Of a DNA stretch of 64,000 bases, positions 1,776 to 28,122 are shown piece by piece. The stretch lies in the IMG/VR virus record IMGVR_UViG_3300045988_133024, positions 1 to 64,000 of that record; one strand, given 5' to 3'. The position numbers were made by a program, and so were the translations under genes. The stretch comes from a virus. Under the pieces are notes generated by a model, which saw only the letters and a list, made by a program, of their open reading frames with translations, ran no database searches and had not been told where the DNA came from. Position 1 is the first letter of the stretch. Every line of letters begins with the position of its first letter.

Positions 1776-2474
1776 ATGATTAATAAAGCAGAGATAAAGG
1801 ATGTATATAACGAAGCATTGGAAAAATCTCAACAAAGTTATGAATTACAATTACAGCAATGGCTAGAGAATTATATCCGAAAAAATAATAAATTTACCAT
1901 AGAGGAGTTGATTGATCGTTTTCATGATAAAAGATATTCAGTTTCATATACAAGATCCATAATTATGTCTATCTTGAATATTTTTTATGTTGGAATACGT
2001 GAAGTCTCTGATACAGATGTTATTGTGAAATTTCAAAATAAAACCGTACAGGAAATTTGTAATAATTTCGATTTTAAATACAAGCCAGAATTGGTCAGCG
2101 AATATTCTGATTGTATTAATTTTGCAAACGATGATATTTTTTCTCAAGAAATTATTGAGATTTATCATAAGTTGTTACAGAAAAAAGATAAAATAGAGCA
2201 AAAAATTAAAGATCAATTACTTAATGCAGCAGAACGTCTTGATAGGGTGTGCGTAATAAATCTAACAGACATTATGATTCCTAAAAATACAAAAGTAACA
2301 GATTTTATGTTTCTAGTTGTATATAATTATATAGTTCGATCAATATTGATAGAATCTCAATTATTATTTGAAATGATATCAGATGAAGAAGATAATTTCA
2401 TTAGATATAAGTCTGGAAATTCAAAAACAATACGATATGACGATTATAGATACAAGGTTAGAGGATATTGCTAG
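1776..2474 (+). CDS. hypothetical protein
   Basis: 232-aa ORF. RBS 'aagaggtg'. Confidence 0.55.
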   Translation: MINKAEIKDVYNEALEKSQQSYELQLQQWLENYIRKNNKFTIEELIDRFHDKRYSVSYTRSIIMSILNIFYVGIREVSDTDVIVKFQNKTVQEICNNFDFKYKPELVSEYSDCINFANDDIFSQEIIEIYHKLLQKKDKIEQKIKDQLLNAAERLDRVCVINLTDIMIPKNTKVTDFMFLVVYNYIVRSILIESQLLFEMISDEEDNFIRYKSGNSKTIRYDDYRYKVRGYC

Positions 2475-2566
2475 GAGGTAGTATTATGATTTTTGCAACA
2501 GGAGATACGCATGGGGGATTGCAATTTATGAACAGATAATTAGGATTTTATAAGGAGGATTTTTGT

Positions 2567-2887
2567 ATGAAGATAAATACGATGAGACAAAATAAGGAAG
2601 AAAAGAAAGTAAATCAGAATCTTATGTGGATTTCAGCTGAGATTCCACCGCTAAAGCCAGATAACGCATCACGTTATATGAGATATAAAACATATCCTGT
2701 GATTGTAGATTACAGATATAATGATGGATATGTGGACGAAGTGCTTGATTTTTGTGACTATGACTTTGAAGAAAAGAGGTGGAAATTAGACAAGCCGCAT
2801 AAAATCAGACAGTATTTTCCACTTCCAAGCAAGCACAAGGTAAAGTGTTCGAACAAAAAGAGAACACTTGTTCGAAAAATATCTTGA
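2567..2887 (+). CDS. hypothetical protein
   Basis: 106-aa ORF. RBS 'aaggagg'. Confidence 0.55.
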   Translation: MKINTMRQNKEEKKVNQNLMWISAEIPPLKPDNASRYMRYKTYPVIVDYRYNDGYVDEVLDFCDYDFEEKRWKLDKPHKIRQYFPLPSKHKVKCSNKKRTLVRKIS

Positions 2888-2968
2888 TTTTGTTCTGTAG
2901 TAGCATTATAATAAGAAGTGTAAAAATTCTTTGTTATATTAGACTTTTGAAAAATATCTTTAAACGCT

Positions 2969-2998
2969 ATTGACAAGCATATAAAGGTATGGTATATT
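2969..2998 (+). promoter_or_regulatory. sigma-70-like promoter: -35 ttgaca (2969-2974), extended -10 'tggtatatt' (2990-2998), 18-nt spacer
   Basis: The -35 hexamer is a consensus match. The -10 has a TGn extension. The promoter lies inside a 30-bp block, 'atctttaaacgctattgacaagcatataaag', that recurs at 47454..47484. Confidence 0.55.
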
Positions 2999-3046
2999 TA
3001 ACTCATGTAAATGAAAATGCAACTGATGGAAGTTGAGGTACATGAA

Positions 3047-3502
3047 ATGAACGGATATACTAATAAAAAAGAAAATGGAAAGAGATACGACAAAGATGAA
3101 AAGAAACAATATGAATATGGGAAATATATGAAGCCGCATGTGTGGGAAATATATTTTGCCGATCTACCTGAAGTAGAAGATAGTCATATATTGTGTGGGT
3201 TACGACCAGTGATTGTGTTTTCAAATGATATATGCAATAGTACGAGTACGGAAATCAATGTTTATCCTCTAACTAAAAGGATAAGAAATTGGATTCCTAC
3301 ACATGTTACTATATGCAGAAATAAAACAAATGGTCTTAAAAGAAACTCTCAAGTGTATTGTGAGCAAGGACGAACAATTCCAAAACGGAATTTGTTAGAA
3401 TACTGGGGACAAGTAACCAACTTATCTCTTCAATTAAAAATTGCACATGCCATTATGATACAGAATGGTATGTTGTCATATATGAATGTGGCAGCGTCAT
3501 AG
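3047..3502 (+). CDS. hypothetical protein (alternative start at 3011)
   Basis: ORF 3011..3502. The internal ATG at 3047 is preceded by 'gaggt'. The 3011 ATG would be nearly leaderless from the promoter at 2969. Confidence 0.5.
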   Translation: MNGYTNKKENGKRYDKDEKKQYEYGKYMKPHVWEIYFADLPEVEDSHILCGLRPVIVFSNDICNSTSTEINVYPLTKRIRNWIPTHVTICRNKTNGLKRNSQVYCEQGRTIPKRNLLEYWGQVTNLSLQLKIAHAIMIQNGMLSYMNVAAS

Positions 3503-3517
3503 AATGGAGAAAGTTTT

Positions 3518-4546
3518 ATGAATAATAAAGAATTTATAGAAAATTATATAAAGACAAAAGTTCCAGAGTCAGCACGACCAGGATGGGAATGGATGTTGGA
3601 TTCTGATCTTGCAAGAGAGGACGAACAGGGCTTAACATACGCTCCAGGAACAATCCAAGAGGCTATGTTAAGGGCAGGAAAAGGGACTGCAAGAAATCGA
3701 ACCATGAATTCTATTGTGAAAAGATATAAACAACTTGTAGATTTATACACCTACGCAAATGAATGTAACTATATAAAATATAATCCATTCAAAAGCGATA
3801 AATTCATTGATCTACAAATCGTTGTGGATATTTATTTTTCCAATCAGGTCAACGTGAACTATGTGTCGAAAGAACAATTGAACGAACTTCTGATAGCTTT
3901 AGCTCTGCGTAAAAAGCCTTTGGATAAAAAAACAAGGTTGCAAATCGTACTATATCTAGTAAGTTTGTATAACGGTATTGATGCTGACGCCTTAAAGGAC
4001 TTAAAGTTTTCTGAAATCGACGAAGAGAAACAAACGATCTCAGGGAAACCAATTGGTAAAAACTTTTTAGATATGATTGCATACTATAAAAACGCAATGG
4101 GTGAGAATATTTATGAAGATCATATAATTATTCCATCATACAAATGTGATGATTTGCAGGAATATAAAAAAGCACAAGACCGTATTGGCTACAATATCAG
4201 ATTTTTGTTTAATACGCTTGGCAAATCGTTAAATTATTATAAAATGTCAAAAAATGACGTTATTAATTCTGGGTTTGTACAGTATTTAAAATCAAGAATG
4301 AGCATTGAATCAATATCTGAACTGTATTATGTTAAACCAAAGGATGGTGTAGCGAGATCATTAAATGCTAAGATGTTCAATGATATTGCGATTGATTTTT
4401 ATTACAAATACTATAAAACATATAGATTGGATGACGTACCGTATAATTTTAGTAGGAGACAAACGGTAATTGGGAAAACGATCAGTTATCTATATCAAGA
4501 TGAAGATTACAAGAATTATCGTGTGCATCAAATCATGACAGAGTAA
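3518..4546 (+). CDS. hypothetical protein
   Basis: 342-aa ORF. RBS 'ggag' 8 nt upstream. Confidence 0.55.
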   Translation: MNNKEFIENYIKTKVPESARPGWEWMLDSDLAREDEQGLTYAPGTIQEAMLRAGKGTARNRTMNSIVKRYKQLVDLYTYANECNYIKYNPFKSDKFIDLQIVVDIYFSNQVNVNYVSKEQLNELLIALALRKKPLDKKTRLQIVLYLVSLYNGIDADALKDLKFSEIDEEKQTISGKPIGKNFLDMIAYYKNAMGENIYEDHIIIPSYKCDDLQEYKKAQDRIGYNIRFLFNTLGKSLNYYKMSKNDVINSGFVQYLKSRMSIESISELYYVKPKDGVARSLNAKMFNDIAIDFYYKYYKTYRLDDVPYNFSRRQTVIGKTISYLYQDEDYKNYRVHQIMTE

Positions 4547-6308: not shown

Positions 6309-7706
6309 ATGGATAAAAATAAAACGGGCGTTTGGATACAGGACTTAGAAGGTAGAACGTACCCTTATAAAGAAGCAGATGGTACATATAAAGGAATTGT
6401 AGGAGATACAGTTATTGTTGGTACGTCTAGTATGATTGCTACATTTACAATTGAAAATATATCGTATCAAAAACTTCCATTTACAATGATTAATTACCAA
6501 ATTAAGCCAATGTATTTTGGAAAGAAGGATAACGATATATGGAAATCGTATGATTGCAGCGATGCCAAACAAATAGAGATGTTTCTGAGAGACGGTACAG
6601 CAGTGATTATTGTTCCGTTTGATTATGATAAAAGTCAGTATAGAACAAAAAGCATTTCTTCAGATGAAGCAATGATTACCTTTTATGAACAAAATCAGAA
6701 TAAGATGGAAACGATCTTGTTTGGTGAGCCGACAGTAGGGAAGACCTATCCACTTCAAACAATGAACGAGGATCTTGAGATTCAGACAGGTACGATTTCA
6801 GCCGACGAAATACAGGTTGATACATTGACTCTACCGTCACTTTCAGAAAGAAGAGTGTCTGCTCTGCCACACTATCAGCAAAAACCAATTACCGCAACGT
6901 CAGAACCAATAAAGAATGAGGCTGGTGAGCTTTCAACCACAGGGAAATCATGGATGATACATGACGACCGTGGGTTGAGTCCTTATGCACCAACACATAT
7001 TGATTGGAATGGTGAAATGAGTGCAACTTTAACATTTGCGCCAGAAAAATTGGATGAAATCATGAGTGAACTTACAGGAAACGAAGAGGAGAAAGATATG
7101 AATACAGAAAAATTAAAAGACAAAATCAAAAAAGTTATTTATGTAGACAAAGAGATGACAGTTAGGGAACCTGTTTTAGATAGTAATGGTAAGCCACTCG
7201 AAAGAGGTGGTAAACCAGTAACTAAGGCTAAATTTTACAGAGGTATGGTTAAGGTGGTTTGGAACTGTGGTACTGAAACTGTTGCTTATACAAGCAGATT
7301 CGACAGATTTAACAGAGAAGAAGGTTTCAAGACTTGTGTATTAAAATACCTGTTTGGTAACGCAGGTGCTCATGATGCAGTTGACTTCTGGACAAACAAA
7401 TATGTGAAATATCCAAGTAGCTGCATTGAAGTAACAGAAAATTTATGCAAATTGGAAGAGATCATCGAGAATGATAAGCAGAGAGAAGAGGAACGAAAAG
7501 GTTTGCCTTATGCAAAATTCTTAAGAAGAACGGTGGATCGTTTAGTACCTAGCTTTTCAGATGACAAATTACATTATGCACCAGAAGATGAAAAGCTTGC
7601 TAATGAATTTAAGAAATTAGCAAAGAAATATTTTCCAGAACTTAAATGTAGGGAAATTTATATTAATGATAGAAAACAGGAAGACGTTTTCGTAGCAATT
7701 AAATAA
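6309..7706 (+). CDS. hypothetical protein
   Basis: 465-aa ORF. RBS 'aaaggagaa'. Confidence 0.55.
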   Translation: MDKNKTGVWIQDLEGRTYPYKEADGTYKGIVGDTVIVGTSSMIATFTIENISYQKLPFTMINYQIKPMYFGKKDNDIWKSYDCSDAKQIEMFLRDGTAVIIVPFDYDKSQYRTKSISSDEAMITFYEQNQNKMETILFGEPTVGKTYPLQTMNEDLEIQTGTISADEIQVDTLTLPSLSERRVSALPHYQQKPITATSEPIKNEAGELSTTGKSWMIHDDRGLSPYAPTHIDWNGEMSATLTFAPEKLDEIMSELTGNEEEKDMNTEKLKDKIKKVIYVDKEMTVREPVLDSNGKPLERGGKPVTKAKFYRGMVKVVWNCGTETVAYTSRFDRFNREEGFKTCVLKYLFGNAGAHDAVDFWTNKYVKYPSSCIEVTENLCKLEEIIENDKQREEERKGLPYAKFLRRTVDRLVPSFSDDKLHYAPEDEKLANEFKKLAKKYFPELKCREIYINDRKQEDVFVAIK

Positions 7707-11379: not shown

Positions 11380-12216
11380 ATGATTACTATTGGTGGAGTA
11401 CCAGTTGTTCCAGAATCTTTTCCAGATGGAACACAGAAAATTGGTTTGCCGTTAGGAGCAATGAGATCACGGATTGCAGTAAATAAATTTGTATCAATTG
11501 AATGGCTGTATGAATCAGATAAAGAATTATTTTCGCTATATTGTATTTCAAAAAGTATTCGAGAATATTTCCCACATTTATCACAGTGTTTAGTGATGCC
11601 GTATATTCCGAATGCAAGATTTGACAGGGTTAAAGATCATAACGAATGTTTTACATTAAAATATTTTGCAGAAATCATCAATGAATTAAATTTTAGAAAT
11701 GTCATCGTAACAGATCCTCACTCAGACGTTTCTAAAGCATTGATTGATCACCTACAATATATACCAATTAAACTATATATTTCTAAGGTTTGCAATAAAG
11801 TCCTTAAAGCAGAGCCATCAAGAAATCTCGTAATTTATTTTCCAGATAGCGGATCACTAAAAAGATATTCTGAATTTGTATCAGATGATTATCCGATTGT
11901 CTATGGAATTAAAAATCGGGATTGGAAGACAGGAGAAATTCTTGGTATTGAGATTCATGGAGATACAGATAAATTAGATGAGAATACAGCAATTCTAATG
12001 ATTGATGATATTTGTAGTAAGGGTGGCACATTTTATTATGGATCAAAAGAATTAAACAAATACGGTTGTAAAGATATGTATTTATATGTTACTCACTGTG
12101 AAAACACAATTCTTGATGGCGAATTATTAAAGGAAGATAGTTTGTTTAAAAAAGTGTATACGACACGTAGTATTTTTACAAAAGAACATGAGAAAGTTGA
12201 GGTGTTAGATTTATGA
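11380..12216 (+). CDS. ribose-phosphate pyrophosphokinase (Prs)-like protein; candidate ADPR-pyrophosphate synthetase of a NARP1-type NAD+ reconstitution pair
   Basis: PRPP/phosphoribosyltransferase-type loop 'AILMIDDICSKGGTF'. A Prs-like 'VIVTDPHS' motif. The stop overlaps the start of the downstream NAMPT-like gene. Confidence 0.55.
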   Translation: MITIGGVPVVPESFPDGTQKIGLPLGAMRSRIAVNKFVSIEWLYESDKELFSLYCISKSIREYFPHLSQCLVMPYIPNARFDRVKDHNECFTLKYFAEIINELNFRNVIVTDPHSDVSKALIDHLQYIPIKLYISKVCNKVLKAEPSRNLVIYFPDSGSLKRYSEFVSDDYPIVYGIKNRDWKTGEILGIEIHGDTDKLDENTAILMIDDICSKGGTFYYGSKELNKYGCKDMYLYVTHCENTILDGELLKEDSLFKKVYTTRSIFTKEHEKVEVLDL

Positions 12217-13679
12217 AACAGACAAATCCAATGTTATTAATTGATTTTTATAAAGCAGTTCATGCTGAAATGTTACCAAAAGGTATTACAAAATCTGTTT
12301 CTTATTTTACTCCACGTATGAGCAGGGTAAAACGATGGAACGAAGTCGTGATGTTTGGGTTACAGGGATTCATTAAAGAATATCTGATTGATTATTTTAA
12401 TAAGAATTTCTTTGATCTTAAAGGTGGAGCAGTTACTTCTTACAAGAGGATTATGGACGCAGCTCTTGGAGAAAATACTTATGGATTACAGAAAATCGCA
12501 GATCTTTATGAGCTTGGTTATCTTCCGATTGAGATTAAAGCACTTCCCGAAGGAACTTTAGCACCAATGCATGTGCCGATGTTTAGTATTGAGAATACTC
12601 ACAAAGATTTTGCATGGTTACCACAGGCATTAGAAAGTTTAATTTCCGCAGAAATGTGGCATCCGATGATTGCTGCGACTGTCGGGCATACATATAGACA
12701 GATTGTTAATAAGTTTTATGAAATGACTTGTGATGATGATATTGTAAAAGCTAAAGCATTAGGGGCTTTCGATTTTCGTGGCGAAGAATGTTTACAGTCT
12801 GCGGTTAAAGCAGGAGTAGGATGGTGTTTATCATTCTTAAATACAGCTACGGTTCCAACAATTCCATATTTAGAGAGAAATTATAACTGCGATTGTACGA
12901 AAGAACCAGTTGCTTTTGGTAGTCCGTCTACTGAGCATGCGGTCATGTGTAGTAATTATGCGATTGACGGAGATGAAGAGACTCTGATTAAAAGATTACT
13001 TACAGAGATTTATCCAAACACAAGCTTCTCAGCAGTATTGGATTCTTATGATTATTGGAATGTTGTAGAGAATATTCTTCCAAAACTCAAGAACGAGATT
13101 ATGAATCACAATGGATGTTTTCTTGTCAGAGGAGACTCAGGAGATTGTGTAGATGTAGTAACCAGAACAGTATTTAAGTTATGGGAAGAGTTTGGGGGAA
13201 CGACAAATACAAAAGGGTATAAAGTATTAGATCCTCATGTAAAAGCAATTTATGGAGATTCAATTACAATACAGAGGTGTGAGCAGATTTATGACATCTT
13301 AGAGAAAAATGGATTCGCAGCAAGTAATGTTGCACTTGGCGTAGGATCATTCTCATTCCAGTGTATCGAAGAAGATGGAGTTTTAAAACCATTTACAAGA
13401 GATACATTTAGCAGTTGTATTAAAGCAACGTATTGTGAGATTGATGGCAAACCATATCCAATTTTCAAGAATCCAAAAGATGGCGGATTTAAGAAATCTC
13501 AGAGAGGTTTATGTTATGTCTATAAAGGATCAGACGGTAAATTGACATTTAAAGATGGATATACTTCAGAAAATCTTCCAATGAACAACCTGCTTGAGAC
13601 AGTATTTAGAGATGGCAAGTTGGTAAAAGAGCAGTCATTACAGGAGATTAGAAGAGTGTTAAACGAAGGAGAATTTTAA
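12213..13679 (+). CDS. nicotinamide phosphoribosyltransferase (NAMPT/NadV)-family protein; candidate Namat of a NARP1-type pair
   Basis: N-terminal 'LLIDFYKAVH' matches the NAMPT 'D-x-YK-x-H' signature. The length (488 aa) fits the family. Start overlaps the upstream Prs-like gene. Confidence 0.6.
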   Translation: MKQTNPMLLIDFYKAVHAEMLPKGITKSVSYFTPRMSRVKRWNEVVMFGLQGFIKEYLIDYFNKNFFDLKGGAVTSYKRIMDAALGENTYGLQKIADLYELGYLPIEIKALPEGTLAPMHVPMFSIENTHKDFAWLPQALESLISAEMWHPMIAATVGHTYRQIVNKFYEMTCDDDIVKAKALGAFDFRGEECLQSAVKAGVGWCLSFLNTATVPTIPYLERNYNCDCTKEPVAFGSPSTEHAVMCSNYAIDGDEETLIKRLLTEIYPNTSFSAVLDSYDYWNVVENILPKLKNEIMNHNGCFLVRGDSGDCVDVVTRTVFKLWEEFGGTTNTKGYKVLDPHVKAIYGDSITIQRCEQIYDILEKNGFAASNVALGVGSFSFQCIEEDGVLKPFTRDTFSSCIKATYCEIDGKPYPIFKNPKDGGFKKSQRGLCYVYKGSDGKLTFKDGYTSENLPMNNLLETVFRDGKLVKEQSLQEIRRVLNEGEF

Positions 13680-14194: not shown

Positions 14195-14965
14195 ATGAGT
14201 TTTAATGCAAAAGAAACCAAAGACAGATTAGTGCAGTGGATTAGAGATTGGTTTGAAATTAATGGTAAAGGATGCAATGCCATTGTAGGAATTTCAGGAG
14301 GCAAGGATTCATCAGTTGTCGCAGCCTTATGCGTAGAAGCACTTGGCAAGAATCGAGTAATCGGTGTCATGATGCCACAGGGCGTACAGTCAGATATTGA
14401 GTATTCTCAGATGTTATGTAATCACTTAGGTATTGAAAATTATACAGTTAATATCTACGAGCCATGTTTAAGTATCAAGCATGAAGTATCAAGCGTATTA
14501 AATGGTAAATGGAGTAAGCAGAGTGCAACAAACTTACCTGCTCGTATCCGTATGGCTACATTATATGCTTTCGCACAGAGTATGAATGGTAGAGTGGCAA
14601 ATACTTGTAACTTATCTGAAGACTGGGTTGGATATGCGACCAGATATGGAGATTCAGCTGGAGATTTTAGTCCATTAAGTGATCTGACTGTGACAGAAGT
14701 TAAAGCAATTGGTAAAGTTCTGGGACTTCCAACAGAGTTAATCGAAAAAACTCCTACTGATGGGTTATGTGGCAAGACAGATGAAGATAATCTTGGATTT
14801 ACATACGAAGTGTTGGATGAATATATCAGAACAGGTGAATGCAAGGATAAAGTAGTGAGACAGATCATTGATGAAATGCATGAGAAGAATGTATTTAAAC
14901 TTGCTCCAATGCCTAAATTTATATCTGGTATGTGGATCGAGGCAGGAATGGAGTTGGATGATTAA
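14195..14965 (+). CDS. nadE: NH3-dependent NAD+ synthetase (NadE)-like PP-loop ATPase
   Basis: PP-loop 'GISGGKDSSV'. Size and architecture fit NadE. Confidence 0.65.
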   Translation: MSFNAKETKDRLVQWIRDWFEINGKGCNAIVGISGGKDSSVVAALCVEALGKNRVIGVMMPQGVQSDIEYSQMLCNHLGIENYTVNIYEPCLSIKHEVSSVLNGKWSKQSATNLPARIRMATLYAFAQSMNGRVANTCNLSEDWVGYATRYGDSAGDFSPLSDLTVTEVKAIGKVLGLPTELIEKTPTDGLCGKTDEDNLGFTYEVLDEYIRTGECKDKVVRQIIDEMHEKNVFKLAPMPKFISGMWIEAGMELDD

Positions 14966-15365: not shown

Positions 15366-16826
15366 ATGATTGAAGTAATTGGAACAGTGGTACCAGTGGT
15401 TATTGCGGCAGGTGGCGTAGGAGCTATTATCGGTAGCGGTTATGTCAAAGCAAGTCCAGATAAAGCTTATATTATTTCTGGACTTAGAAAGACACCTAAG
15501 ACATTAATTGGTAAGGCAGGGTTAAAAATCCCATTCTTTGAAAAAGCAGATCATCTTAATCTTGAGTTAATTCCAATTGATGTCAAGACATCAAGTTCTG
15601 TGCCTACAGCAGATTATATCAATATCAATGTAGATGCAGCGGTCAATGTAAAGGTTAGCAGTAATCCAGAAAGATTAAAACTTGCAGCAGAAAACTTCTT
15701 AAATAAGCCAGTAGGCGATATTGGACAGGTCGCAAGAGAAGTCCTTGAAGGTAATATGCGAGAGATCGTTGGGAAGATGAGTCTCGAAGAAATGGTTTCT
15801 GATCGTCAGAAATTTGCACAGCTTGTTACAGAAAATGCGAAGCCAGATCTTGCTGCAATGGGATTAGATATTATCAGTTTTAATGTTCAGAATTTTATGG
15901 ATGATAATGATGTTATTGAAAATCTTGGTGTAGATAATGTTGTTAAAATCAAGAAGAAGGCTGCGATTTCCAGAGCTGAAAGCGAAAGAGATATTGAAAA
16001 AGCAAAAGCAATGGCTGAAAAAGAAGCAAATGATGCAAAGGTAGAGTCAGCAACAGCGATTGCAGAAAAGAATAACAATCTGGAGATTAAAAAATCTGAG
16101 CTTGAAAAGATTTCAAAAGCAAAGAAAGCTGAGGCAGATGCAGCATATAAGATCCAGGAAGAAAAATCACGTAAAGAAATTGAAGTTGTAACTGCGGATG
16201 CTAATATTATGCGTCAGGAAAAAGAAATTGAACTGAAACGCAAAGATGTTGAGGTAACAGAGCAGACATTAGATGCACAGATCAAGAAACAGGCAGAGGC
16301 TGAAAGATATGCTTCTCAGCAGAAAGCAGATGCAGACTTATACAAGAAACAGAAAGAATCTGAAGCTAACAAATATGCCAAAGAAAAAGAAGCCGAATCT
16401 ACAAAATATGCTATGGAGCAGGAAGCTGAAGGTATTCGTGCAAAGGGTGTAGCAGAAGCCGAGGCAATCAAAGCTAAAGGTATTGCTGAAGCAGAAGCAA
16501 TTGAAAAGAAAGCAGAAGCTATGAAACAGATGGGTAAAGCTTCTATTGTAGAAATGATGTGCCAGATGTTCCCAGAAGCAGTTAAAAATGCAGCAGCACC
16601 ATTAGGAAATGTAGGAAGTATCACTATGTATGGAGAAGGAAACACAACAAAATTAACAAAAGATATTATGAATGTTGTGAATCAGGTATCAGATGGTGTT
16701 AAAGGATCTACAGGTGTTGATCTTGCAAAGATGCTAAAAGATTTTGTTTCTGAAGATAAAGAAGCAGAATCTACAGATAATGTTGGTCAGCCAGAAGTAT
16801 ATTCAGACGATTATCGTGAGTTCTAA
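15366..16826 (+). CDS. SPFH/band-7 flotillin-like membrane protein
   Basis: N-terminal TM segment. Band-7 core 'YIISGLRKTPKTLIGKAGLKIPFFEKADHLNLELIPIDV'. Long Ala/Glu/Lys-rich coiled coil, as in FloT/YuaG. Confidence 0.65.
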   Translation: MIEVIGTVVPVVIAAGGVGAIIGSGYVKASPDKAYIISGLRKTPKTLIGKAGLKIPFFEKADHLNLELIPIDVKTSSSVPTADYININVDAAVNVKVSSNPERLKLAAENFLNKPVGDIGQVAREVLEGNMREIVGKMSLEEMVSDRQKFAQLVTENAKPDLAAMGLDIISFNVQNFMDDNDVIENLGVDNVVKIKKKAAISRAESERDIEKAKAMAEKEANDAKVESATAIAEKNNNLEIKKSELEKISKAKKAEADAAYKIQEEKSRKEIEVVTADANIMRQEKEIELKRKDVEVTEQTLDAQIKKQAEAERYASQQKADADLYKKQKESEANKYAKEKEAESTKYAMEQEAEGIRAKGVAEAEAIKAKGIAEAEAIEKKAEAMKQMGKASIVEMMCQMFPEAVKNAAAPLGNVGSITMYGEGNTTKLTKDIMNVVNQVSDGVKGSTGVDLAKMLKDFVSEDKEAESTDNVGQPEVYSDDYREF

Positions 16827-21939: not shown

Positions 21940-22274
21940 TAAATAGAGTTGAGATTATATTGGGAACGCTTGTATGTAACATTATTGGTAACAAAATATT
22001 TGATAGTTTGTATCAAAAAGATAAACGTGTTAGTGATTTTCACAAGGATAATGATGTATCACTGCGTACTCGGACAGAAAATGATATGAAGCAATTAGAT
22101 ATGATGTTTGCTGATCAGGTTATTAGGATATTAAGAGATATTCAAAACCATTGGTTACCTGAAAGACCAATAATATACGGAGATGATCGTATGTATACAG
22201 AGTCACAATACCAGGCAGAAAAGATGCATCAGGCTATTGACGATGCCGTTACTGTGTTATTAGAAAAAATGTAA
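21936..22274 (+). CDS. hypothetical protein
   Basis: 112-aa ORF with overlapping start. Confidence 0.5.
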   Translation: MINRVEIILGTLVCNIIGNKIFDSLYQKDKRVSDFHKDNDVSLRTRTENDMKQLDMMFADQVIRILRDIQNHWLPERPIIYGDDRMYTESQYQAEKMHQAIDDAVTVLLEKM

Positions 22275-22289
22275 AGTGAGGTAATTAAT

Positions 22290-22601
22290 ATGGGAGCTAA
22301 TATTGAGTTTGCCATTGGCTATGCGATTGGGTTTTGTATCGTTGGAGTGATTGTATTCCTGAGATATGAAAAGAAGTTAGATCGGATGAGGCAGGCAAAT
22401 GTAAATCTGATCTTAGACAAGATGTCGTTTATGTCAGATGTAAGCGATAAAGAAAATGGTACATATAATAAGGAAGAAACTCGTTCAGATGTTAAGGACG
22501 CAGTGAAGTATGCAATGAAGAAAAGTCATCCAGACAATGGTGGTAGTGCAGATGATTTTCGAAAATTTAGAGAGCTTTATGAAGAAATGGAAGGTAAGTA
22601 A
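22290..22601 (+). CDS. membrane-anchored J-domain-like protein
   Basis: N-terminal TM segment. C-terminal 'KYAMKKSHPDNGGSADDFRKFRELYEEM' carries the HPD motif of DnaJ J-domains. Confidence 0.45.
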   Translation: MGANIEFAIGYAIGFCIVGVIVFLRYEKKLDRMRQANVNLILDKMSFMSDVSDKENGTYNKEETRSDVKDAVKYAMKKSHPDNGGSADDFRKFRELYEEMEGK

Positions 22602-22883
22602 ATGCTAAAGGTCGGAGATAGAGTTTATATTTATAGAATGAAGCCAGCGGCTAAAGGAGGTTTGGTTAGAAATAACGACAAAGGTACAATTACTCGCATC
22701 GGAACAGATGAGATTGGTCGCAGATATGGGTATAGATATATGACCGTTAAATTTGACAAACCAGTAAATATCTCTAATCGTGATATTTACTCTTTAGAAT
22801 TTTTTGAAAACAAGGATGATCGTAAGATAGGTAGAATACGAGATACTGGATTCTTACTATATGGTAGAAAATGTGAGGAATAA
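22602..22883 (+). CDS. hypothetical protein
   Basis: 93-aa ORF starting at the upstream stop. Confidence 0.5.
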   Translation: MLKVGDRVYIYRMKPAAKGGLVRNNDKGTITRIGTDEIGRRYGYRYMTVKFDKPVNISNRDIYSLEFFENKDDRKIGRIRDTGFLLYGRKCEE

Positions 22884-22888
22884 GACTT

Positions 22889-23074
22889 ATGAGTAAACAA
22901 GAATCATTGAAGTTTTTGCAAGGTTTGATTGACGAAGTAGAAAATTGGACAAAAGAGGATATCGAGCGAGGTCGGAAATTGATGGAGAAAATGAAAAAAG
23001 AAGAACCAAAAGAAGTTGAAAATAGTGATGGATATTGGGAATTTATAATGCCAGATGGTAAGGAAGTGAAGTAG
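22889..23074 (+). CDS. small hypothetical protein
   Basis: 61-aa ORF immediately upstream of the Cas12f/TnpB-like gene. Confidence 0.45.
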   Translation: MSKQESLKFLQGLIDEVENWTKEDIERGRKLMEKMKKEEPKEVENSDGYWEFIMPDGKEVK

Positions 23075-23076
23075 AT

Positions 23077-24705
23077 ATGGCTAAGAAACAAAATAAAAAT
23101 ACGATGCAGATCAATAGAAAAATTACTTTAATTCCAGTTGCAAGTGACAATGATGGTTGGAAGAAGAAGATGAATACATATCTTGAAAAATTTTATTTTG
23201 ACAAGAAAATTAAAGCCAAAGAAAGACAAATCAAAAATACGAGTAAACCAGAAAGAAAAGAAGAATACAAACAGCAGCTTACAGAATATAAAAAGCAACA
23301 AGAACAGTTCTTAAATGGTGAGCTTGAAGATTATACAAAGCAGATGGTTATGAGTTATACATATGATTTGGTAAGAGACTGTATGGAAAGTGAAGCAAGA
23401 CAGAAGAATTTCATAATGTCTTATATGTTCTCAGAGATGATCAGAGAAAAGGTCTGCTACTTAAAAAACAAGAAAGAAAAGGAAAAATGGGTAAATGACA
23501 ATATCAATGTTGCATTTAGAGTTAAAGGATCACCAAAGGGAAGTATCTTTGACGATGTTGAGATTTATAGTCCATTAAGAGCATTGAGTATTCAGGGATA
23601 TACTCAGGAATTAAAGGGGAGAGTTAAGAAATTCGCCACTGATGGTGGTTTAGACGGGAAGTTGGCAGTCGATAATTATAAATTAGATTCGCCATTTCAT
23701 ATGTCAAAGCAAGGATTTGATATTGTTCATGAATATGAAGACTTGACAGAGCTTAAAAAGAATATTGGTAAATCAAGTTGTGAAATATATGTGAATCTTG
23801 GTAACGGTGGCGTTCCTACATTCGCAAGATTTCAATTAGATTTTGGACACAAAGGCAATCGAGAAGAGTTAATTTCTACAATTACAAAAGTATTTACTGG
23901 CGAATATAAAGTATGTGGAAGTTCAATTCAGATTAATAAAAAGAATAAGATTATATTAAATCTTGGACTTGAAATTCCAAAAAGACTTACTGAATTAGAT
24001 GAAAACACGGTAGTTGGAGTCGATCTTGGGTTAGCAGTTCCAGCTGTATGCTCTTTAAATAATAATCAGTATAAGAAAGAGTATATTGGGGACGGAGAAG
24101 CTTTTGTAAAACAGCGAGGCAAAATTCAAAAAGAAAAACAGAGACTACAAAAAGCATTGAAACTTTCAAAGGGTGGACATGGAAGAAAGAGAAAAATGTT
24201 AGCCTTAGAAAGATTCAAAGAAAGAGAAGCAAATTTTGTAAATACTTATTGTCATAGAATCAGTAAAAAAGTTGTTGAATATGCACTTAAGAATAATGCC
24301 AAATATATCAATATTGAGAATTTAAAAGGATATGATTCTAGTAAATTTATTCTGAGAAATTGGAGTTTCTACCAGCTTCAGCAAGATATTACATATAAAG
24401 CAGAAAGATATGGTATTGAAGTAAGAAAAATCAATCCTGCATTTACTTCTCAAGTATGTAGTTTCTGTGGGTATTGGGAATCTGGACAGAGAATAAATCA
24501 GAAAACTTTTAAATGCGGAAATCCAAATTGTAAGAGTCATAATCTCAAATTTTTCAATGCAGATTATAATGCTGCAAGAAATATTTCAATGTCAACATTG
24601 TTTACAAGTGACAATTATAAGTTTGGAAAAGAATCTTTGCAAAAAGCAGCAGATTATTACGGAATTGATTTAGAAATTGATTCTGAAGACCAAGAAATTG
24701 CTTAA
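23077..24705 (+). CDS. Cas12f/TnpB-like RNA-guided nuclease candidate (split RuvC domain plus zinc finger)
   Basis: RuvC-I 'VVGVDLGLAVPAV'. RuvC-II 'AKYINIENLKGY'. Zinc finger 'CSFCGYW..CGNPNCKSH'. RuvC-III 'NADYNAARNI'. At 542 aa with the D/E/D spacing, it resembles miniature type V effectors. No tnpA or cas1/cas2 is adjacent. Confidence 0.75.
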   Translation: MAKKQNKNTMQINRKITLIPVASDNDGWKKKMNTYLEKFYFDKKIKAKERQIKNTSKPERKEEYKQQLTEYKKQQEQFLNGELEDYTKQMVMSYTYDLVRDCMESEARQKNFIMSYMFSEMIREKVCYLKNKKEKEKWVNDNINVAFRVKGSPKGSIFDDVEIYSPLRALSIQGYTQELKGRVKKFATDGGLDGKLAVDNYKLDSPFHMSKQGFDIVHEYEDLTELKKNIGKSSCEIYVNLGNGGVPTFARFQLDFGHKGNREELISTITKVFTGEYKVCGSSIQINKKNKIILNLGLEIPKRLTELDENTVVGVDLGLAVPAVCSLNNNQYKKEYIGDGEAFVKQRGKIQKEKQRLQKALKLSKGGHGRKRKMLALERFKEREANFVNTYCHRISKKVVEYALKNNAKYINIENLKGYDSSKFILRNWSFYQLQQDITYKAERYGIEVRKINPAFTSQVCSFCGYWESGQRINQKTFKCGNPNCKSHNLKFFNADYNAARNISMSTLFTSDNYKFGKESLQKAADYYGIDLEIDSEDQEIA

Positions 24706-24714
24706 ATTATCGAC

Positions 24715-24835
24715 TGTATATGGCATGTTTTGGATGAGGTGCCGAACTTCGTCGATCATAGAATATATGATTATGCCAAAAGTGAGGTGTGAATAGAAAT
24801 GCACTCACTAAAATTTGTGTAACTAGACAGAACGT
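24715..24835 (+). ncRNA. structured element A1 (candidate tracrRNA/omegaRNA-like scaffold) with a degenerate CRISPR half-repeat at its 3' end
   Basis: Starts 10 nt after the nuclease stop. Begins with 'tgtatatggcatgtttt', which is closed by '...ttatgcca' (ggcat/atgcc inverted repeat). Contains the hairpin agtgag-[17 nt]-ctcact. The tail 'taactagacagaac' resembles the 3' end of the array repeat ('taacataggtacagaac'). Confidence 0.4.
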
Positions 24836-24895
24836 AAAGTTTTGCATTGTATACATAATAAAGATTTGAGGTTTGAGAATTATTAAAAATTACAC

Positions 24896-24920
24896 AGATA
24901 CAAAACGGTTCTAGTGATCA
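24896..24920. repeat. direct repeat B1, 'agatacaaaacggttctagtgatca'
   Basis: Matches B2 at 22 of 25 positions. The two copies are 101 bp apart. Confidence 0.5.
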
Positions 24921-24996
24921 ATTCAAACATTCATAAGTTTTAGAATCATTAGAAATTATATAATTATAAAATATAGTATTAAATAAACATTTATGT

Positions 24997-25020
24997 AGAT
25001 ACAAAATGATTCTAGTGTCT
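24997..25020. repeat. direct repeat B2, 'agatacaaaatgattctagtgtct'
   Basis: Second copy of B1. The two copies flank a ~75-bp AT-rich segment containing the palindrome aattatataatt. Confidence 0.5.
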
Positions 25021-25069
25021 AAGACAATATATACAGGTTGATAAAACCTGTTATAACTACACAAATTAT

Positions 25070-25172
25070 TGTGTATGGCATGTTTCGAGAAATATCATCA
25101 CCAATATGATATTTCTGGTCATGGAGTATCATGACTATGCCAAAAGTGAGATTATATGATACTCACTAAAAT
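25070..25172 (+). ncRNA. structured element A2 (second copy of A1, 355 bp downstream), immediately upstream of the mini-array
   Basis: Shares 'tgtgtatggcatgttt...atgactatgccaaaagtgag-[11 nt]-ctcactaaaat' with A1. The internal perfect hairpin is agaaatatcat/atgatatttct. The loop sequences are variable. Confidence 0.4.
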
Positions 25173-25194
25173 GTATGTTAATTAAATATTCGAG

Positions 25195-25363
25195 GCTTAA
25201 GACCTATTAAATTTAACATAGGTACAGAACACATGATGCAGTATTTTTTTGAATCAATTATGTTTAAGACCTATCAGATTTAACATAGGTACAGAACTTG
25301 GCACATTACTGGATTGGCTAACCGATAGCACAAGACCTATCAAATTTAACAAAAATTAAAGGA
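25195..25363 (+). CRISPR. mini CRISPR-like array: 36-bp repeats at 25195-25230 and 25262-25297, plus a degenerate terminal repeat (~25328-25363); spacers of 31 and 30 nt
   Basis: R1 is gcttaagacctattaaatttaacataggtacagaac. R2 is gtttaagacctatcagatttaacataggtacagaac (3 mismatches). R3 keeps aagacctatcaaatttaac and then diverges. The period is 66-67 bp. The repeats carry an internal hairpin cctat/atagg. Confidence 0.55.
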
Positions 25364-25545
25364 AATTAAACAGAAAATGAAAACAAGGAAACAACGTAAA
25401 CAGGAAATAAAACGATTCTTTGATCGGCTGAGTCCTGAGGAATTGGACAAGCTATTAGAAAGAAATGGAATTAATGATAAAGAGTCTAATGAGGCTCTTT
25501 CATATAGAACTATAAAAGAAGAAATTGAGAAAGGAGAGACCTGAT

Positions 25546-25854
25546 ATGGCATATAAGTTGTATATTGAAACACAAAAGGAATATACGGGATGTAGTCCAC
25601 AGCTGGAGGTATTAAATGTAAGAGATTGCAAACATGTCATTGCATCATTAGATCATTACCCACCTACAGCTGAGGAGGTTAAGAAAGCAGCTTGTATATT
25701 AATCGGACAATGTATTTACAAACGTATTTGTAGCATGGAAATCGACATTGATATTTTGGATATGCATTGTTCTCCGCCAAAAGAAATGACGATTGAAGAA
25801 ATCGAAAAAGAACTCGGTCATAAAGTAAAAATTGTAGAGGAGAAAGAAAAATGA
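25546..25854 (+). CDS. hypothetical protein (start trimmed from 25525 to the ATG with RBS 'aaaggagag')
   Basis: 102-aa ORF. A 55-aa ORF at 25377..25544 directly after the array is also possible but has only a weak RBS. Confidence 0.5.
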   Translation: MAYKLYIETQKEYTGCSPQLEVLNVRDCKHVIASLDHYPPTAEEVKKAACILIGQCIYKRICSMEIDIDILDMHCSPPKEMTIEEIEKELGHKVKIVEEKEK

Positions 25855-26798
25855 AATGTTTTTATCATGTTGATCAAGACGGGATTGTGTCTGGATTCTA
25901 CGTCAGAAAAGCTTGTGAACAACGAGGCTTAGAGTTTGAACCAGAAGACTTCCGAAAAATTAATTACGGTATGAAATTCCCGTTTCATGACATTGAACAG
26001 GATGAATTCGTATTTATTGTAGACTACAGCATTGAGCCAGAAGAAATGTGGCAACTGCTTAGTATTACAAAGAATGTATTTTGGATTGATCATCATCAGT
26101 CTACGATTGAAGCGTATAAAGATTTCAAATGTGATGTGAAAGGAATTCGAATCACTGGAGCAGGTATTTCAGGAGCGAATTTGACATGGTTGTACTTTAA
26201 AGAAATGTGTGATGACAATTGGAAGCAAGTTGACAAAACAGATTATAAAAGAGGCAAAGCTTTGCTTGGTAGATATGAAATAGGAATCCCTATGTTGGCA
26301 AAATATACAGCAATGTGGGATACATTTTATTTTGGTGCAACGTCAAAAAAATTCATAAAAGCATTTCACTATGCATTTGAATCGTGTGATTTTGATGCAT
26401 TAAGTCCATTGCTAAACACGTTAAATGAAGATCAAGGAATTTATGAAGCAACAAAAATTATTGGTGATATGATAACAGATGGCTTATCAATTATTGAGTA
26501 TTTAGCAGCAAATGCAGAACAGTATCTCAGAGCATATGGTTTTGAAACCACCTTTGAAGGTCATAAAGTCTATGCAGTCAATCGAGCATTAATCAATTCT
26601 GATTTCTTCGAATCTATTGATGGTTCTAAATACGATATGTTTATTGGTTTCTCTTTTAACGGAAGTATGTGGGAATATCAGTTACGATCTGCAGAACAAG
26701 ATAAGGTTAATGTATATGAGCTTGCTGTGAAATATGGTGGTGGCGGTCATCCAAATGCAGCTGGATTTAGGAGTGATAAATATGTGTTAGGGGTGTGA
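25851..26798 (+). CDS. stand-alone DHH-DHHA1 phosphoesterase (NrnA / cyclic-nucleotide phosphodiesterase-like)
   Basis: DHH motif I 'YHVDQDGIVSG'. 'IDHHQS'. C-terminal DHHA1 motif 'GGGGHPNAAGF'. Confidence 0.55.
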   Translation: MKCFYHVDQDGIVSGFYVRKACEQRGLEFEPEDFRKINYGMKFPFHDIEQDEFVFIVDYSIEPEEMWQLLSITKNVFWIDHHQSTIEAYKDFKCDVKGIRITGAGISGANLTWLYFKEMCDDNWKQVDKTDYKRGKALLGRYEIGIPMLAKYTAMWDTFYFGATSKKFIKAFHYAFESCDFDALSPLLNTLNEDQGIYEATKIIGDMITDGLSIIEYLAANAEQYLRAYGFETTFEGHKVYAVNRALINSDFFESIDGSKYDMFIGFSFNGSMWEYQLRSAEQDKVNVYELAVKYGGGGHPNAAGFRSDKYVLGV

Positions 26799-26801
26799 TG
26801 T

Positions 26802-27605
26802 ATGTCAAGGAAAAATACAAGAGAATTTGAACTTGCTTTTAGTAAAAACAGAGATCCAGATTGGGAAGCAGATGTGGAAATTTATAGAAGAAGAAAGTTC
26901 GAAGTAGTGCGTGGTATTTGTCTTGGAGATGAGTTTGCTGAAATTGAGTCTTTAGAATACAAAAATTGTGACGAGTTAGATGAAATGTATTATCGTTTTG
27001 ATTATAATTTAAAAATGCTTATGAAGTCTTATTTGCATGAATATACAGATTATGTGCCAATCGAAACAATGCATATTACATCTCCTGCAATATTGTGTTG
27101 TGATGAAATTGTATTAAAAAACGGTGAGAAAATTTCTATTGATAACATATGTGGTGATAAATCAAATGGCAATGAAGTTTATAAATTATATTCTAATAGT
27201 ACATATACAGATGATGTATATTATGAATCTACTAAAGCATTAGTTTATGAATTGGCTAGTAAAGATGTTTGCAAGGCTATACATATAATGAAAGATATAA
27301 TGGACAAAGCGTATATAAAAGCAAGAAATGAACGAAGCATACATCCTTTTATTAGCCACTTGTTTAACGACCCTCCAATTCCATGTATTAAAAATAAATA
27401 TTCTATACATGATTTAGTAATGGGTACATTAAAATGCAGTGGTGATATTTATGAAGAAATAAACAAAGAAGTCCCAAATGCTATAGATATGATTGTGCCT
27501 CATCCTGGAAGACATGCAGAGTATTATTTTGGGTTAGATTATACAGATGAAGTAGAGCAATTCATTAAAGAACAGGAGGCAAAGAGATGTGAAGAAACTA
27601 AATGA
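26802..27605 (+). CDS. hypothetical protein
   Basis: 267-aa ORF. RBS 'aggggtg'. Confidence 0.5.
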   Translation: MSRKNTREFELAFSKNRDPDWEADVEIYRRRKFEVVRGICLGDEFAEIESLEYKNCDELDEMYYRFDYNLKMLMKSYLHEYTDYVPIETMHITSPAILCCDEIVLKNGEKISIDNICGDKSNGNEVYKLYSNSTYTDDVYYESTKALVYELASKDVCKAIHIMKDIMDKAYIKARNERSIHPFISHLFNDPPIPCIKNKYSIHDLVMGTLKCSGDIYEEINKEVPNAIDMIVPHPGRHAEYYFGLDYTDEVEQFIKEQEAKRCEETK

Positions 27606-28122
27606 TGAACAGCGAAGGCTGATTGAAGATAATTACTCTTTGATTTGGCATTTACATGAAAAATATTTTACAAAGTTTACAGATTTTGATACATATATGG
27701 ATCTTGGTCGTATGGCAATTTGTAAAGCAGCATTAAAATGGGATGAGTCAAAAGGAACTTTTGGTACTTTCTTTCGGTGGGTATTGCAAACAGAGGTAAA
27801 TCAATATTATGCAAAATGGCATAGACCAACAGAAAAAATGAATAGAAATGCAGAATCGTTAGATACGCCATTGGCAGGATACGAACCAGAAGATGATATT
27901 ACAATCGGAACAACACTGATGAGTAAAGATAATGTAGAGGATGAGGTGCTTACAAAGGTACATTTTCAAAATGAGTTTGATAAATTGGCACCGAGAAATA
28001 AAAAAATTATCACGTTAAAGCAGAAAGGTTTAACACAAAGACAAATTGCAAGTCAGCTTGGAATCACTCATCAGTGGGTTAGTCAAAATATTGTACAGTT
28101 TAAGAAAGCATTATGTGGATAA
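27589..28122 (+). CDS. sigma-70 family (ECF-like) sigma factor
   Basis: Region-2-like N-terminus 'LNDEQRRLIEDNYSLIWHLHEKYF'. Region-4 HTH 'LTQRQIASQLGITHQWVSQNIVQFKKAL'. A paralogue lies at 33349..33891. Confidence 0.55.
   Translation: MKKLNDEQRRLIEDNYSLIWHLHEKYFTKFTDFDTYMDLGRMAICKAALKWDESKGTFGTFFRWVLQTEVNQYYAKWHRPTEKMNRNAESLDTPLAGYEPEDDITIGTTLMSKDNVEDEVLTKVHFQNEFDKLAPRNKKIITLKQKGLTQRQIASQLGITHQWVSQNIVQFKKALCG

Follow-up and report, generated by a model that had tools for sequence, protein, structure and literature searches.

CRISPR systems of type V-F1, exemplified by CnCas12f1, Al3Cas12f, AsCas12f and SpCas12f1 of Firmicutes and Bacteroidota, cleave double-stranded DNA with an asymmetric Cas12f homodimer per guide RNA. 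Here we describe a short repeat cluster, array B, and the Cas12f-like nuclease gene upstream of it in 64,000 nucleotides of viral DNA (positions 1 to 64,000 of IMG/VR virus record IMGVR_UViG_3300045988_133024; hereafter the window). We consider it probable that array B is a mini-CRISPR array specifying two CRISPR RNAs (crRNAs) for the upstream Cas12f1-type nuclease, and that it forms the 3' part of the second of two guide-RNA cassettes. In common with V-F1 systems, the window encodes the same effector fold and motifs, a predicted trans-activating CRISPR RNA (tracrRNA) and crRNA with a repeat:anti-repeat duplex and guide-adjacent pairing, a crRNA in which the 3' handle of the repeat precedes the spacer, and, judging from a small sample of protospacers, a possible 5' T-rich protospacer-adjacent motif (PAM); many V-F1 loci likewise lack adaptation genes. 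Unlike them, the window system is carried by a phage, has tandem cassettes, each with its own scaffold directly upstream of a co-oriented array of one to three spacers and its own co-varying repeat, and shows a leader/repeat junction of the type II-A kind. Its spacers measure 30 nt, whereas those of the characterised V-U3 Cas12f systems measure 33-39 nt (PMC7229846).

Phage-borne type V-F variants without Cas1, Cas2 and Cas4 and with compact arrays have been reported (PMC7162821). The type I-F system that ICP1 directs against PLE, and the type V systems of huge phages, including V-F and 'dCas14' (PMC7162821), also combine a phage effector with compact arrays, likewise have no Cas1 (here within the window) and carry spacers that match a host-integrated element and related phages, but their effector family and guide architecture differ from those described here. 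Huge phages exceed 200 kb, whereas this phage is estimated from related IMG/VR contigs at roughly 100-170 kb. Viral mini-arrays of the Saccharolobus SPV1/SPV2 type (PMC11656645) are similar in having one or two spacers aimed at related viruses and in repeats and a leader that resemble a host-type array, in our case type II-A and mainly at the junction and termini. However, they use host effectors and host-identical repeats, whereas here both the nuclease and the tracrRNA-like RNA are encoded by the phage.

Tandem-duplicated guide units downstream of Cas12f-derived genes have been described for dCas12f-sigmaE (PMC12259090) and as the omega-RNA arrays of Sigma-TnpB (PMC10691335). These resemble the window in repeating whole guide units, with scaffold and repeat-derived handle adjacent and co-oriented, but they serve nuclease-dead transcription factors through fused single guides and have neither CRISPR repeats nor spacer turnover; the window nuclease has an intact RuvC triad, and its guide units all terminate in a true repeat-spacer array. 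Cas12p, LaTranC and CasLambda are likewise small RuvC nucleases, some of them phage-encoded, that are associated with arrays, and the GTN PAM of Cas12p is unlike the T-rich flank of the group studied here. The literature that we covered, which is not complete, describes neither phage Cas12f cassettes with private, co-varying scaffolds nor type V arrays whose leader junction is of the II-A type. A comparison of positions 22000-27000 with GenBank phages gave no nucleotide match and, at the protein level, distant TnpB-like matches only.

The two-spacer array and its nuclease gene

The layout of array B, 490 bp 3' of the end of the nuclease open reading frame (ORF; 24705), was confirmed by the sequence at 25195-25351:

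25195-25230, + strand, array B repeat 1, GCTTAAGACCTATTAAATTTAACATAGGTACAGAAC
25231-25261, + strand, array B spacer 1, 31 nt, ACATGATGCAGTATTTTTTTGAATCAATTAT, target not found in the collections searched
25262-25297, + strand, array B repeat 2, GTTTAAGACCTATCAGATTTAACATAGGTACAGAAC
25298-25327, + strand, array B spacer 2, 30 nt, TTGGCACATTACTGGATTGGCTAACCGATA, target not found in the collections searched
25328-25351, + strand, array B truncated terminal repeat, GCACAAGACCTATCAAATTTAACA kept (5' ~24 nt), then diverging

The repeat cluster is a real two-spacer CRISPR array. Its two 36-bp repeats, its periods of 67 and 66 nt, its spacer lengths, its distance of about 490 bp from the nuclease gene and its orientation on the strand of that gene agree with the original prediction, which had proposed a mini-array with a 66-67-bp period and 30-31-nt spacers. 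The degenerate third copy noted there is indeed the truncated repeat at the leader-distal end, but the end assigned to it, 25363, lies about 12 nt beyond the recognisable repeat. Its 3' handle is swapped for the ribosome-binding region of the next ORF, as in the similarly truncated arrays of three related loci (L001, L002 and L019). The complete repeats are identical at 33 of 36 positions, and their 3' handles are intact and identical. The two spacers are mutually unrelated (best ungapped identity 14 nt) and, as claimed, unique in the window, with no match longer than 13 nt elsewhere in it, while the 32-nt repeat core (up to three mismatches) occurs at just the two array B sites in 64 kb and in 0 of 100 dinucleotide shuffles. 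Neither a longer tandem duplication with homologous spacers nor a repeat scattered through the genome, both raised with the original prediction as counter-explanations, fits these observations in the 64-kb window.

The gene upstream of the array is as follows:

23077-24705, + strand, Cas12f1-type (V-F1 / V-U3-like) nuclease gene, 542 aa; RuvC residues D316, E414 and D496; zinc-ribbon cysteines C461, C464, C480 and C485

The protein combines the features by which V-F1 effectors were recognised, namely homology to Cas12f1, a tri-split RuvC domain with a D-E-D triad and a TNB zinc ribbon, here of the pattern CxxC...Cx4C. It matches the Pfam models Cas12f1-like_TNB (1.4e-18) and OrfB_IS605 and the NCBIfam model guided_TnpB (152 bits). 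Its best sequence matches in the PDB are CnCas12f1 (8HR5, 1e-63) and Al3Cas12f (9NZO/9NZR, 1.8e-63), followed at lower rank by RhCas12f, AsCas12f and Un1Cas12f1, with ISDra2 TnpB at just 1.5e-6; the N-terminal ~175 residues have no sequence match among solved Cas12f structures. Consistent with this, Foldseek searches of the PDB with an AlphaFold model built from 30 homologues (mean predicted local distance difference test score 87.4) returned Cas12f or dCas12f chains for all of the top 22 matches, from 4e-27 (CnCas12f1) to 3e-12. TnpB (4e-11), the Cas12p 'hacker' (1e-10), CasLambda (3e-8) and LaTranC (2e-7) came at later ranks, and this ranking by sequence and fold rules out membership of the Cas12p, TranC or CasLambda families. 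More than 1000 homologues were found, mostly of 510-580 aa and many on contigs of 90-230 kb.

Four of the 30 aligned homologues (P0084, P0091, P0109 and P0120) carry a D316N substitution in RuvC-I (GVNLG), and three of these four also carry D496E in RuvC-III (AEFNNARN). Their clusters are large, with up to 415 members, and by their sequences they look like a naturally nuclease-dead subclade of this phage Cas12f-like family.

Two guide-RNA cassettes

The original prediction had overlooked the surroundings of array B, which include a one-spacer array at 24871-24972 (array A) and two structured scaffolds of about 110 nt. Two tandem cassettes, each made up of a scaffold, an anti-repeat, a leader end and a mini-array, lie in the 670 bp that separate the nuclease gene from the next ORF. 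The earlier interpretation holds in outline, with the correction that array B is the distal part of a scaffold-plus-array cassette, the second of two:

24715-24822, + strand, tracrRNA-like scaffold 1, beginning 10 nt past the nuclease stop codon (two-copy similarity, motif scan, covariation)
24722-24726, + strand, scaffold 1, 5' arm GGCAT of stem S1
24727-24732, + strand, scaffold 1, pseudoknot loop GTTTTG
24778-24813, + strand, scaffold 1, 3' hairpin AAAAGTGAG..CTCACTAAAA
24815-24822, + strand, scaffold 1, anti-repeat TTGTGTAA, duplex with the array A repeat -10.3 kcal/mol
24864-24870, + strand, cassette 1 leader end ATTTGAG, abutting array A repeat 1 (ATTTGAG/GTTT)
24871-24906, + strand, array A repeat 1, GTTTGAGAATTATTAAAAATTACACAGATACAAAAC
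24907-24936, + strand, array A spacer, GGTTCTAGTGATCAATTCAAACATTCATAA, shared with phage L002
24937-24972, + strand, array A degenerate terminal repeat, GTTTTAGAATCATTAGAAATTATATAATTATAAAAT; identity to repeat 1 83% in the 5' half and 62% in the 3' half
25058-25181, + strand, tracrRNA-like scaffold 2 (motif scan, covariation, RNA fold)
25058-25075, + strand, scaffold 2, 5' hairpin
25077-25081, + strand, scaffold 2, 5' arm GGCAT of stem S1
25082-25087, + strand, scaffold 2, pseudoknot loop GTTTCG
25142-25171, + strand, scaffold 2, 3' hairpin
25173-25181, + strand, scaffold 2, anti-repeat GTATGTTAA
25188-25194, + strand, cassette 2 leader end ATTCGAG, one mismatch to ATTTGAG, abutting array B repeat 1

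Both scaffolds share one order of parts: a stem GGCAT...ATGCC, an internal loop GTTTYG, two more hairpins, the element AAAAGTGAG-loop-CTCAC-TAAAA and a segment complementary to the repeat. Folding of 25058-25261 gave -47.3 kcal/mol (z = -3.1), and both the minimum free energy and the centroid structure show the stems and the anti-repeat:repeat pairing. The anti-repeat of scaffold 2 forms a duplex of -8.6 kcal/mol with the array B repeat (8 contiguous pairs), compared to -5.2 kcal/mol with that of array A, and the cognate combinations of tail and repeat are the most stable ones in the window. The loop GUUUUG of scaffold 1 pairs fully with the CAGAAC of array B. A permissive Rfam search of 24500-25600 returned nothing significant; one weak CRISPR-DR22 match (E = 6.9) fell at exactly 24937-24972.

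Just past the terminal repeat of array A, at 24972-25017, lies a partial copy of the junction between the repeat 3' half and spacer A (atttatgtagatacaaaatGATTCTAGTG vs attacacagatacaaaacGGTTCTAGTG). It is absent from L001 and L002. Where it would bind the anti-repeat it has three substitutions, each of them compatible with wobble pairing.

Homologous cassettes in related phages

For comparison, we assembled 21 loci from IMG/VR, Logan and ENA. One to four scaffold motifs stood beside the nuclease gene in 21 of 21 loci, on the strand of the gene, and none on the opposite strand. Mini-arrays with a period of ~66 nt were present in 16 of the 21; in four more the contig stops just past the first repeat or within the first array, and in L015 no array was detected. 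The finding of homologous arrays in about 20 related phages bears out the earlier proposal that the array belongs with the adjacent Cas12f/TnpB-like gene. The nucleases of L001 and L002 are 99% identical to that of the window and are each followed by four cassettes; L019 has four and L020 three, and in L004 both cassettes have a single repeat only. Parsed arrays hold one to three spacers of 29-31 nt, nearly all of them 30 nt, and 18 of 19 close with a repeat that retains the 5' ~22 nt but lacks its 3' end. The nuclease gene is present in a single copy in the window and occupies a conserved syntenic site across phages whose nucleases are just 60% identical. Between the window, L001, L002 and L019, arrays of one type differ in their spacers while scaffolds, repeats and flanks are conserved.

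Directly after the last mini-array, the window (25377-25544), L001, L002, L019 and L020 share a conserved 55-aa ORF without a Pfam match. Its ribosome-binding region sits where the 3' half of the terminal repeat would be. Contigs of public assemblies, L016 and L021 among them, often break off inside the cassette region, and in the cluster P0001, identical to the window protein, the longest contig measures 2 kb. Tandem cassettes probably break short-read assemblies, and automated CRISPR surveys may undercount such loci.

Eighteen cassettes were aligned over the scaffold, 16 nt of tail and the first repeat (alignment A1), with a structure that was read off the sequences and then tested. Standard pairs fill 91.2% of its cells, compared to 29-45% when the 3' partners are slid by one to three columns. 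Sixteen pairs are changed on both sides, and the observed covariation was reached by 0 of 500 shuffles. In the pseudoknot helix, where the scaffold loop meets the repeat's last six bases, pairing reaches 99.1% (GTTTTG/CAAAAC, GTTTCG/CGAAAC, GTTCTG/CRGAAC), and two of its positions each show CG in place of UA in three cassettes. Pairing of the anti-repeat with the 3' half of the repeat reaches 99.3% and includes three doubly changed pairs (e.g., CTATGTTAA/TTAACATAG and TTGTGTAA/TTACACAG); distant relatives prolong the series with TTCAG/CTGAA (L003, L011), CCTTT/AAAGG (L005, L006) and CTTTGTAT/ATACAAAG (L009). By this computational measure the locus has the tracrRNA with an anti-repeat that characterises V-F1, next to the array of direct repeats with unique spacers that is likewise expected of it, and the predicted guide is of tracrRNA:crRNA design with a pseudoknot. 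The hairpin CCTAT...ATAGG that the original prediction had placed within the repeat was not retained as a conserved structure: it is 77% paired with zero covariation, and those bases pair instead with the anti-repeat, at 99% and with compensatory changes.

These observations suggest the following mechanism. Each cassette would be transcribed rightwards, as are all genes of the window, and its scaffold, as covariation shows, folds into three conserved stems. Covariation also shows pairing of the anti-repeat with TTAACATA, the repeat's 3' half, and of the loop GUUUYG with the last six bases of the repeat, CRRAAC, beside the spacer, giving a pseudoknot as in Cas12f and TnpB guides. Each scaffold lies on the strand of its first repeat, 23-57 nt upstream, so that the first unit could fold in cis as a natural single-guide RNA, whereas later repeats would pair in trans. 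The ribonucleoprotein would then cut double-stranded DNA that carries 5'-TTTR beside the protospacer, a motif drawn from three protospacers; cutting is expected because the RuvC triad is intact.

The contiguous, co-oriented and duplicated scaffold-array unit stands between a single omega-RNA and a split tracrRNA/crRNA, a layout that bears on the origin of tracrRNAs from TnpB guides. In addition, the scaffold loop, the anti-repeat and the repeat vary together in nature, which amounts to several orthogonal guides designed around a single small nuclease.

Spacer targets

The array A spacer matches at 29 of 30 positions both the IMG/VR element L023 (118-147) and a locus of Anaerostipes sp. MSJ-23 (L024, 6074-6103, minus strand). 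The protospacer lies where an integrase-bearing element meets the truncated 5' fragment of a tRNA-Leu gene, with the 5' flank TTTA in five of five variants. The element recurs as contigs of ~17.8-19 kb that encode an integrase, a head scaffold, a major head protein, a large terminase, a portal and a tail-fibre-like protein, and it represents a small prophage or else a satellite that forms capsids. Other genes of the same element are matched by the first-cassette spacers of L001, L019 and L020, from 26/30 to 30/31, including the integrase and an ORF beside the large terminase gene; the L001 spacer matches at 28 of 30 positions with 5' TTTR in 24 of 25 variants, and the spacers of L020 at 29/30 and 30/31. 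The ~18-kb Anaerostipes element is thus targeted by array A and by the first arrays of three related phages.

A spacer of L002 points to a different kind of target, matching at 28 of 30 positions the antisense strand of the Cas12f gene of an L020-type phage, with the 5' flank TTTG. Its identity to the nuclease gene of L002 itself is 21/30, and five of the nine mismatches fall within the eight positions beside the 5' flank. The flanks for the nuclease group of the window, L001 and L002 are therefore TTTA, TTTR and TTTG (three of three protospacers TTTR-type, in a small sample), and those for orthologues of 60-63% identity are TTRT and TAYG.

Together, these matches make conflict between mobile elements the likely role of the system. 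Judging from them, a gut phage most likely turns both cassettes against rival mobile elements of its Anaerostipes-like host. The system would then represent a miniature type V-F weapon of a phage in a common gut lineage (Anaerostipes, Lachnospiraceae), with identifiable targets in a resident integrative element and in the homologous nuclease gene of rival phages, and thereby a Firmicutes, type V counterpart of the ICP1-PLE conflict.

The target element adjoins a 5' fragment of a tRNA-Leu(TAG) gene (L023 1-150; L024 6074-6160) that is not called as a tRNA by ARAGORN. Intact tRNA genes stand beside this fragment, a tRNA-Lys in both loci and four further tRNAs upstream in L024, and L024 also contains a remnant of a similar element end between the tRNA-Lys and the tRNA-Leu fragment.

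Does array B remain active?

Several points weigh against the favoured reading of array B as an active guide array of the phage nuclease. Transcription and activity of the cassettes and the nuclease are read entirely from sequence, and the PAM deduced for this nuclease group, 5'-TTTR, derives from three protospacers. A scan for sigma-70-type promoters returned 8 sites in the region compared to a mean of 6.2 in shuffled sequence; the best + strand sites reached at most 9/12, and no site lay where a cassette promoter was expected. A scan for terminators likewise showed no excess over shuffled sequence. The target search proposed with the original prediction came back empty for both array B spacers: five exact sub-window scans of IMG/VR gave no target, JGI metagenomes gave two 20-nt matches in GC-rich, unrelated DNA that we ascribe to chance, blastn against GenBank phages gave E-values of 3-10 only, and the best matches among 41 target-element variants and the Anaerostipes locus (20-22 of 30-31) equal background. 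Cassette 2 itself departs from the consensus in its leader end ATTCGAG and in the start of repeat 1, GCTT. Its loop GUUUCG opposes the repeat end CAGAAC with one C.A mismatch, leaving five of six pairs and a duplex energy near zero, and this mismatch is the sole unpaired cell of the pseudoknot helix in the 18-cassette alignment. Moreover, compared to L002, cassette 2 looks like a recombinant that joins the scaffold of L002's cassette 2 ('module 2') to the tail and array of L002's cassette 4 ('module 4').

The chimera junction falls within ...CTCACTAAAATGTATGTT/AATTAAAT. Because only ~13 nt of exact sequence are shared there, an assembly collapse is unlikely, and a real deletion or recombination appears to be the better reading of how cassette 2 arose.

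This history leads to the alternative that array B is a decaying, non-functional remnant, damaged by deletion or recombination between tandem cassettes, beside a functional cassette 1. The chimeric combination of scaffold and array, the pseudoknot mismatch with its near-zero energy, the non-consensus junction and the two orphan spacers would all be expected of such a remnant, and the three positions at which repeats 1 and 2 differ imply that the latest acquisition is not recent. However, the anti-repeat still forms its 8 contiguous pairs at -8.6 kcal/mol, more stable than with array A, five of the six pseudoknot pairs remain, the 3' handles of array B are identical and intact, and the spacers have canonical lengths. 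In addition, scaffold 1, whose loop GUUUUG pairs fully with CAGAAC, could act in trans, and orphan spacers are usual in phage arrays. We therefore regard decay as unlikely, and favour array B as a source of two crRNAs for the phage nuclease; the main uncertainty is whether the recombinant, slightly mismatched cassette stays active.

Likeness to type II-A arrays and the supply of spacers

In 14 of 21 cassettes the leader finishes with precisely ATTTGAG. Repeats have a length of 36 nt, start with GTTT and mostly end in AAAAC, and the spacers measure 30 nt. In type II-A group 1 systems, ATTTGAG/GTTT is the conserved leader-repeat junction, and for adaptation a single repeat preceded by the final 10 nt of the leader is enough (PMC5382924). 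The arrays of the window show this type II-A design (ATTTGAG, a 36-nt repeat starting with GTTT, 30-nt spacers), with the junction ATTTGAG/GTTT in array A and ATTCGAG/GCTT in array B, but the adjacent cas9-cas1-cas2-csn2 genes of II-A loci do not appear among the window ORFs of at least 200 aa or the neighbours of the nuclease. Set against published II-A repeats from Lachnospiraceae and other Firmicutes, identity amounts to 58-78% (21-28/36), just 3-5 nt above a control with shuffled interiors, and homology over the whole repeat is weakly supported. Because the identity barely exceeds that control, we limit the resemblance to junction, termini and geometry.

A design equal to that of II-A group 1 raises the alternative that the mini-arrays mimic the host and feed a host type II-A Cas9 rather than, or in addition to, the phage nuclease. 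Such a role would agree with the 58-78% repeat identity and with the terminal repeats, whose retained portion, the 5' half, is precisely what a Cas9 crRNA would use, and viral mini-arrays with host effectors are documented (PMC11656645). Against this, those mini-arrays are marked by host-identical repeats and by the lack of a viral effector, whereas here the best II-A identity stays within that range, little above the shuffled control in the interior, and the array stands next to an intact effector gene. Within one phage, the cassettes have markedly different repeat 5' halves, which could not all fit a single host tracrRNA, and covariation ties the phage scaffold to the repeat's 3' half and its last six bases. 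Finally, the protospacers share a T-rich 5' flank, and no common 3' motif was visible by eye in the three with 3' flanks. A supply of crRNAs to host Cas9 is thus very improbable, and the phage nuclease is the preferred partner of the array.

The least credible reading, which takes the nuclease for the TnpB of an IS200/IS605-type element and the repeats for copies of right-end or omega-RNA segments, or for another tandem duplication without guide function, would agree with the matches to the OrfB_IS605 and guided_TnpB models, with the omega-RNA-like start of scaffold 1 right past the stop codon and with the tandem duplication of the cassettes, but can hardly be reconciled with the single-copy gene at a syntenic site among nucleases only 60% identical, the unrelated, strain-variable spacers of fixed 30-nt length that match foreign elements, the closest relationship, in sequence and fold, to CRISPR-associated Cas12f1 and the lack of TnpA or another recombinase among neighbouring ORFs. 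An IS200/IS605 transposon was ruled out on the latter grounds, as the neighbouring ORFs carry no transposase domain, the gene is single-copy in the window and synteny is conserved.

Spacer turnover is evident among these phages, but neither Cas1 nor any other cas gene was found among the 28 ORFs of at least 200 aa in the 64-kb window or among the neighbours of the nuclease, as the original prediction had assumed in describing a phage-borne array without an adaptation module. Plasmid type IV-A systems use the I-E adaptation machinery of their hosts and provide a precedent for borrowing (PMC11656645). By analogy, the II-A-like junction suggests that host II-A adaptation machinery may be borrowed for spacer insertion. 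Only tentatively do we extend this to a complete scenario, which we think rather doubtful as a whole: a Cas1-less yet adaptive phage Cas12f system on a II-A chassis (ATTTGAG, GTTT...AAAC termini, 36/30-nt geometry), in which host Cas1-Cas2-Csn2 would insert the spacers, the repeat 3' halves would have co-evolved with private scaffolds to give orthogonal cassettes for one nuclease, and the first cassette would be in an arms race with the ~18-kb, possibly satellite-like Anaerostipes element. If it is true that the II-A-like junction recruits host adaptation proteins, this would explain current spacers in Cas1-less phage systems and would amount to cross-type use, of type II with type V.

Phage context

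The window derives from a phage, with all genes on one strand and genes for a DNA polymerase, a DnaB-like helicase, a RecJ-like exonuclease, an NAD-dependent ligase and NrdD. A further set of genes, at 12213-13679, 14195-14965, 52237-53061, 59865-60764, 15366-16826, 799-1761 and 27589-28122, comprises a nicotinamide phosphoribosyltransferase and an NAD synthase (NAD salvage), an ADP-ribosylglycohydrolase, a C5 cytosine methylase, an SPFH/flotillin-like protein, a phage-integrase-family protein and a sigma-70 region-4 protein, and looks like equipment for counter-defence and host takeover.

Two of the related loci contain further features near their cassettes. In L011, another repeat family (...CTTATATAGATGTGTGAATTGAAAT, period 64-65 nt) lies at 3990-4150, between a 468-aa ORF (2448-3854) on its upstream side and the Cas12f-type cassettes downstream of it, and may belong to a second guide system of that phage. 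In L019, two Tad2-like (anti-Thoeris) ORFs are located at 7039-7658, ~1.4 kb downstream of the last cassette.

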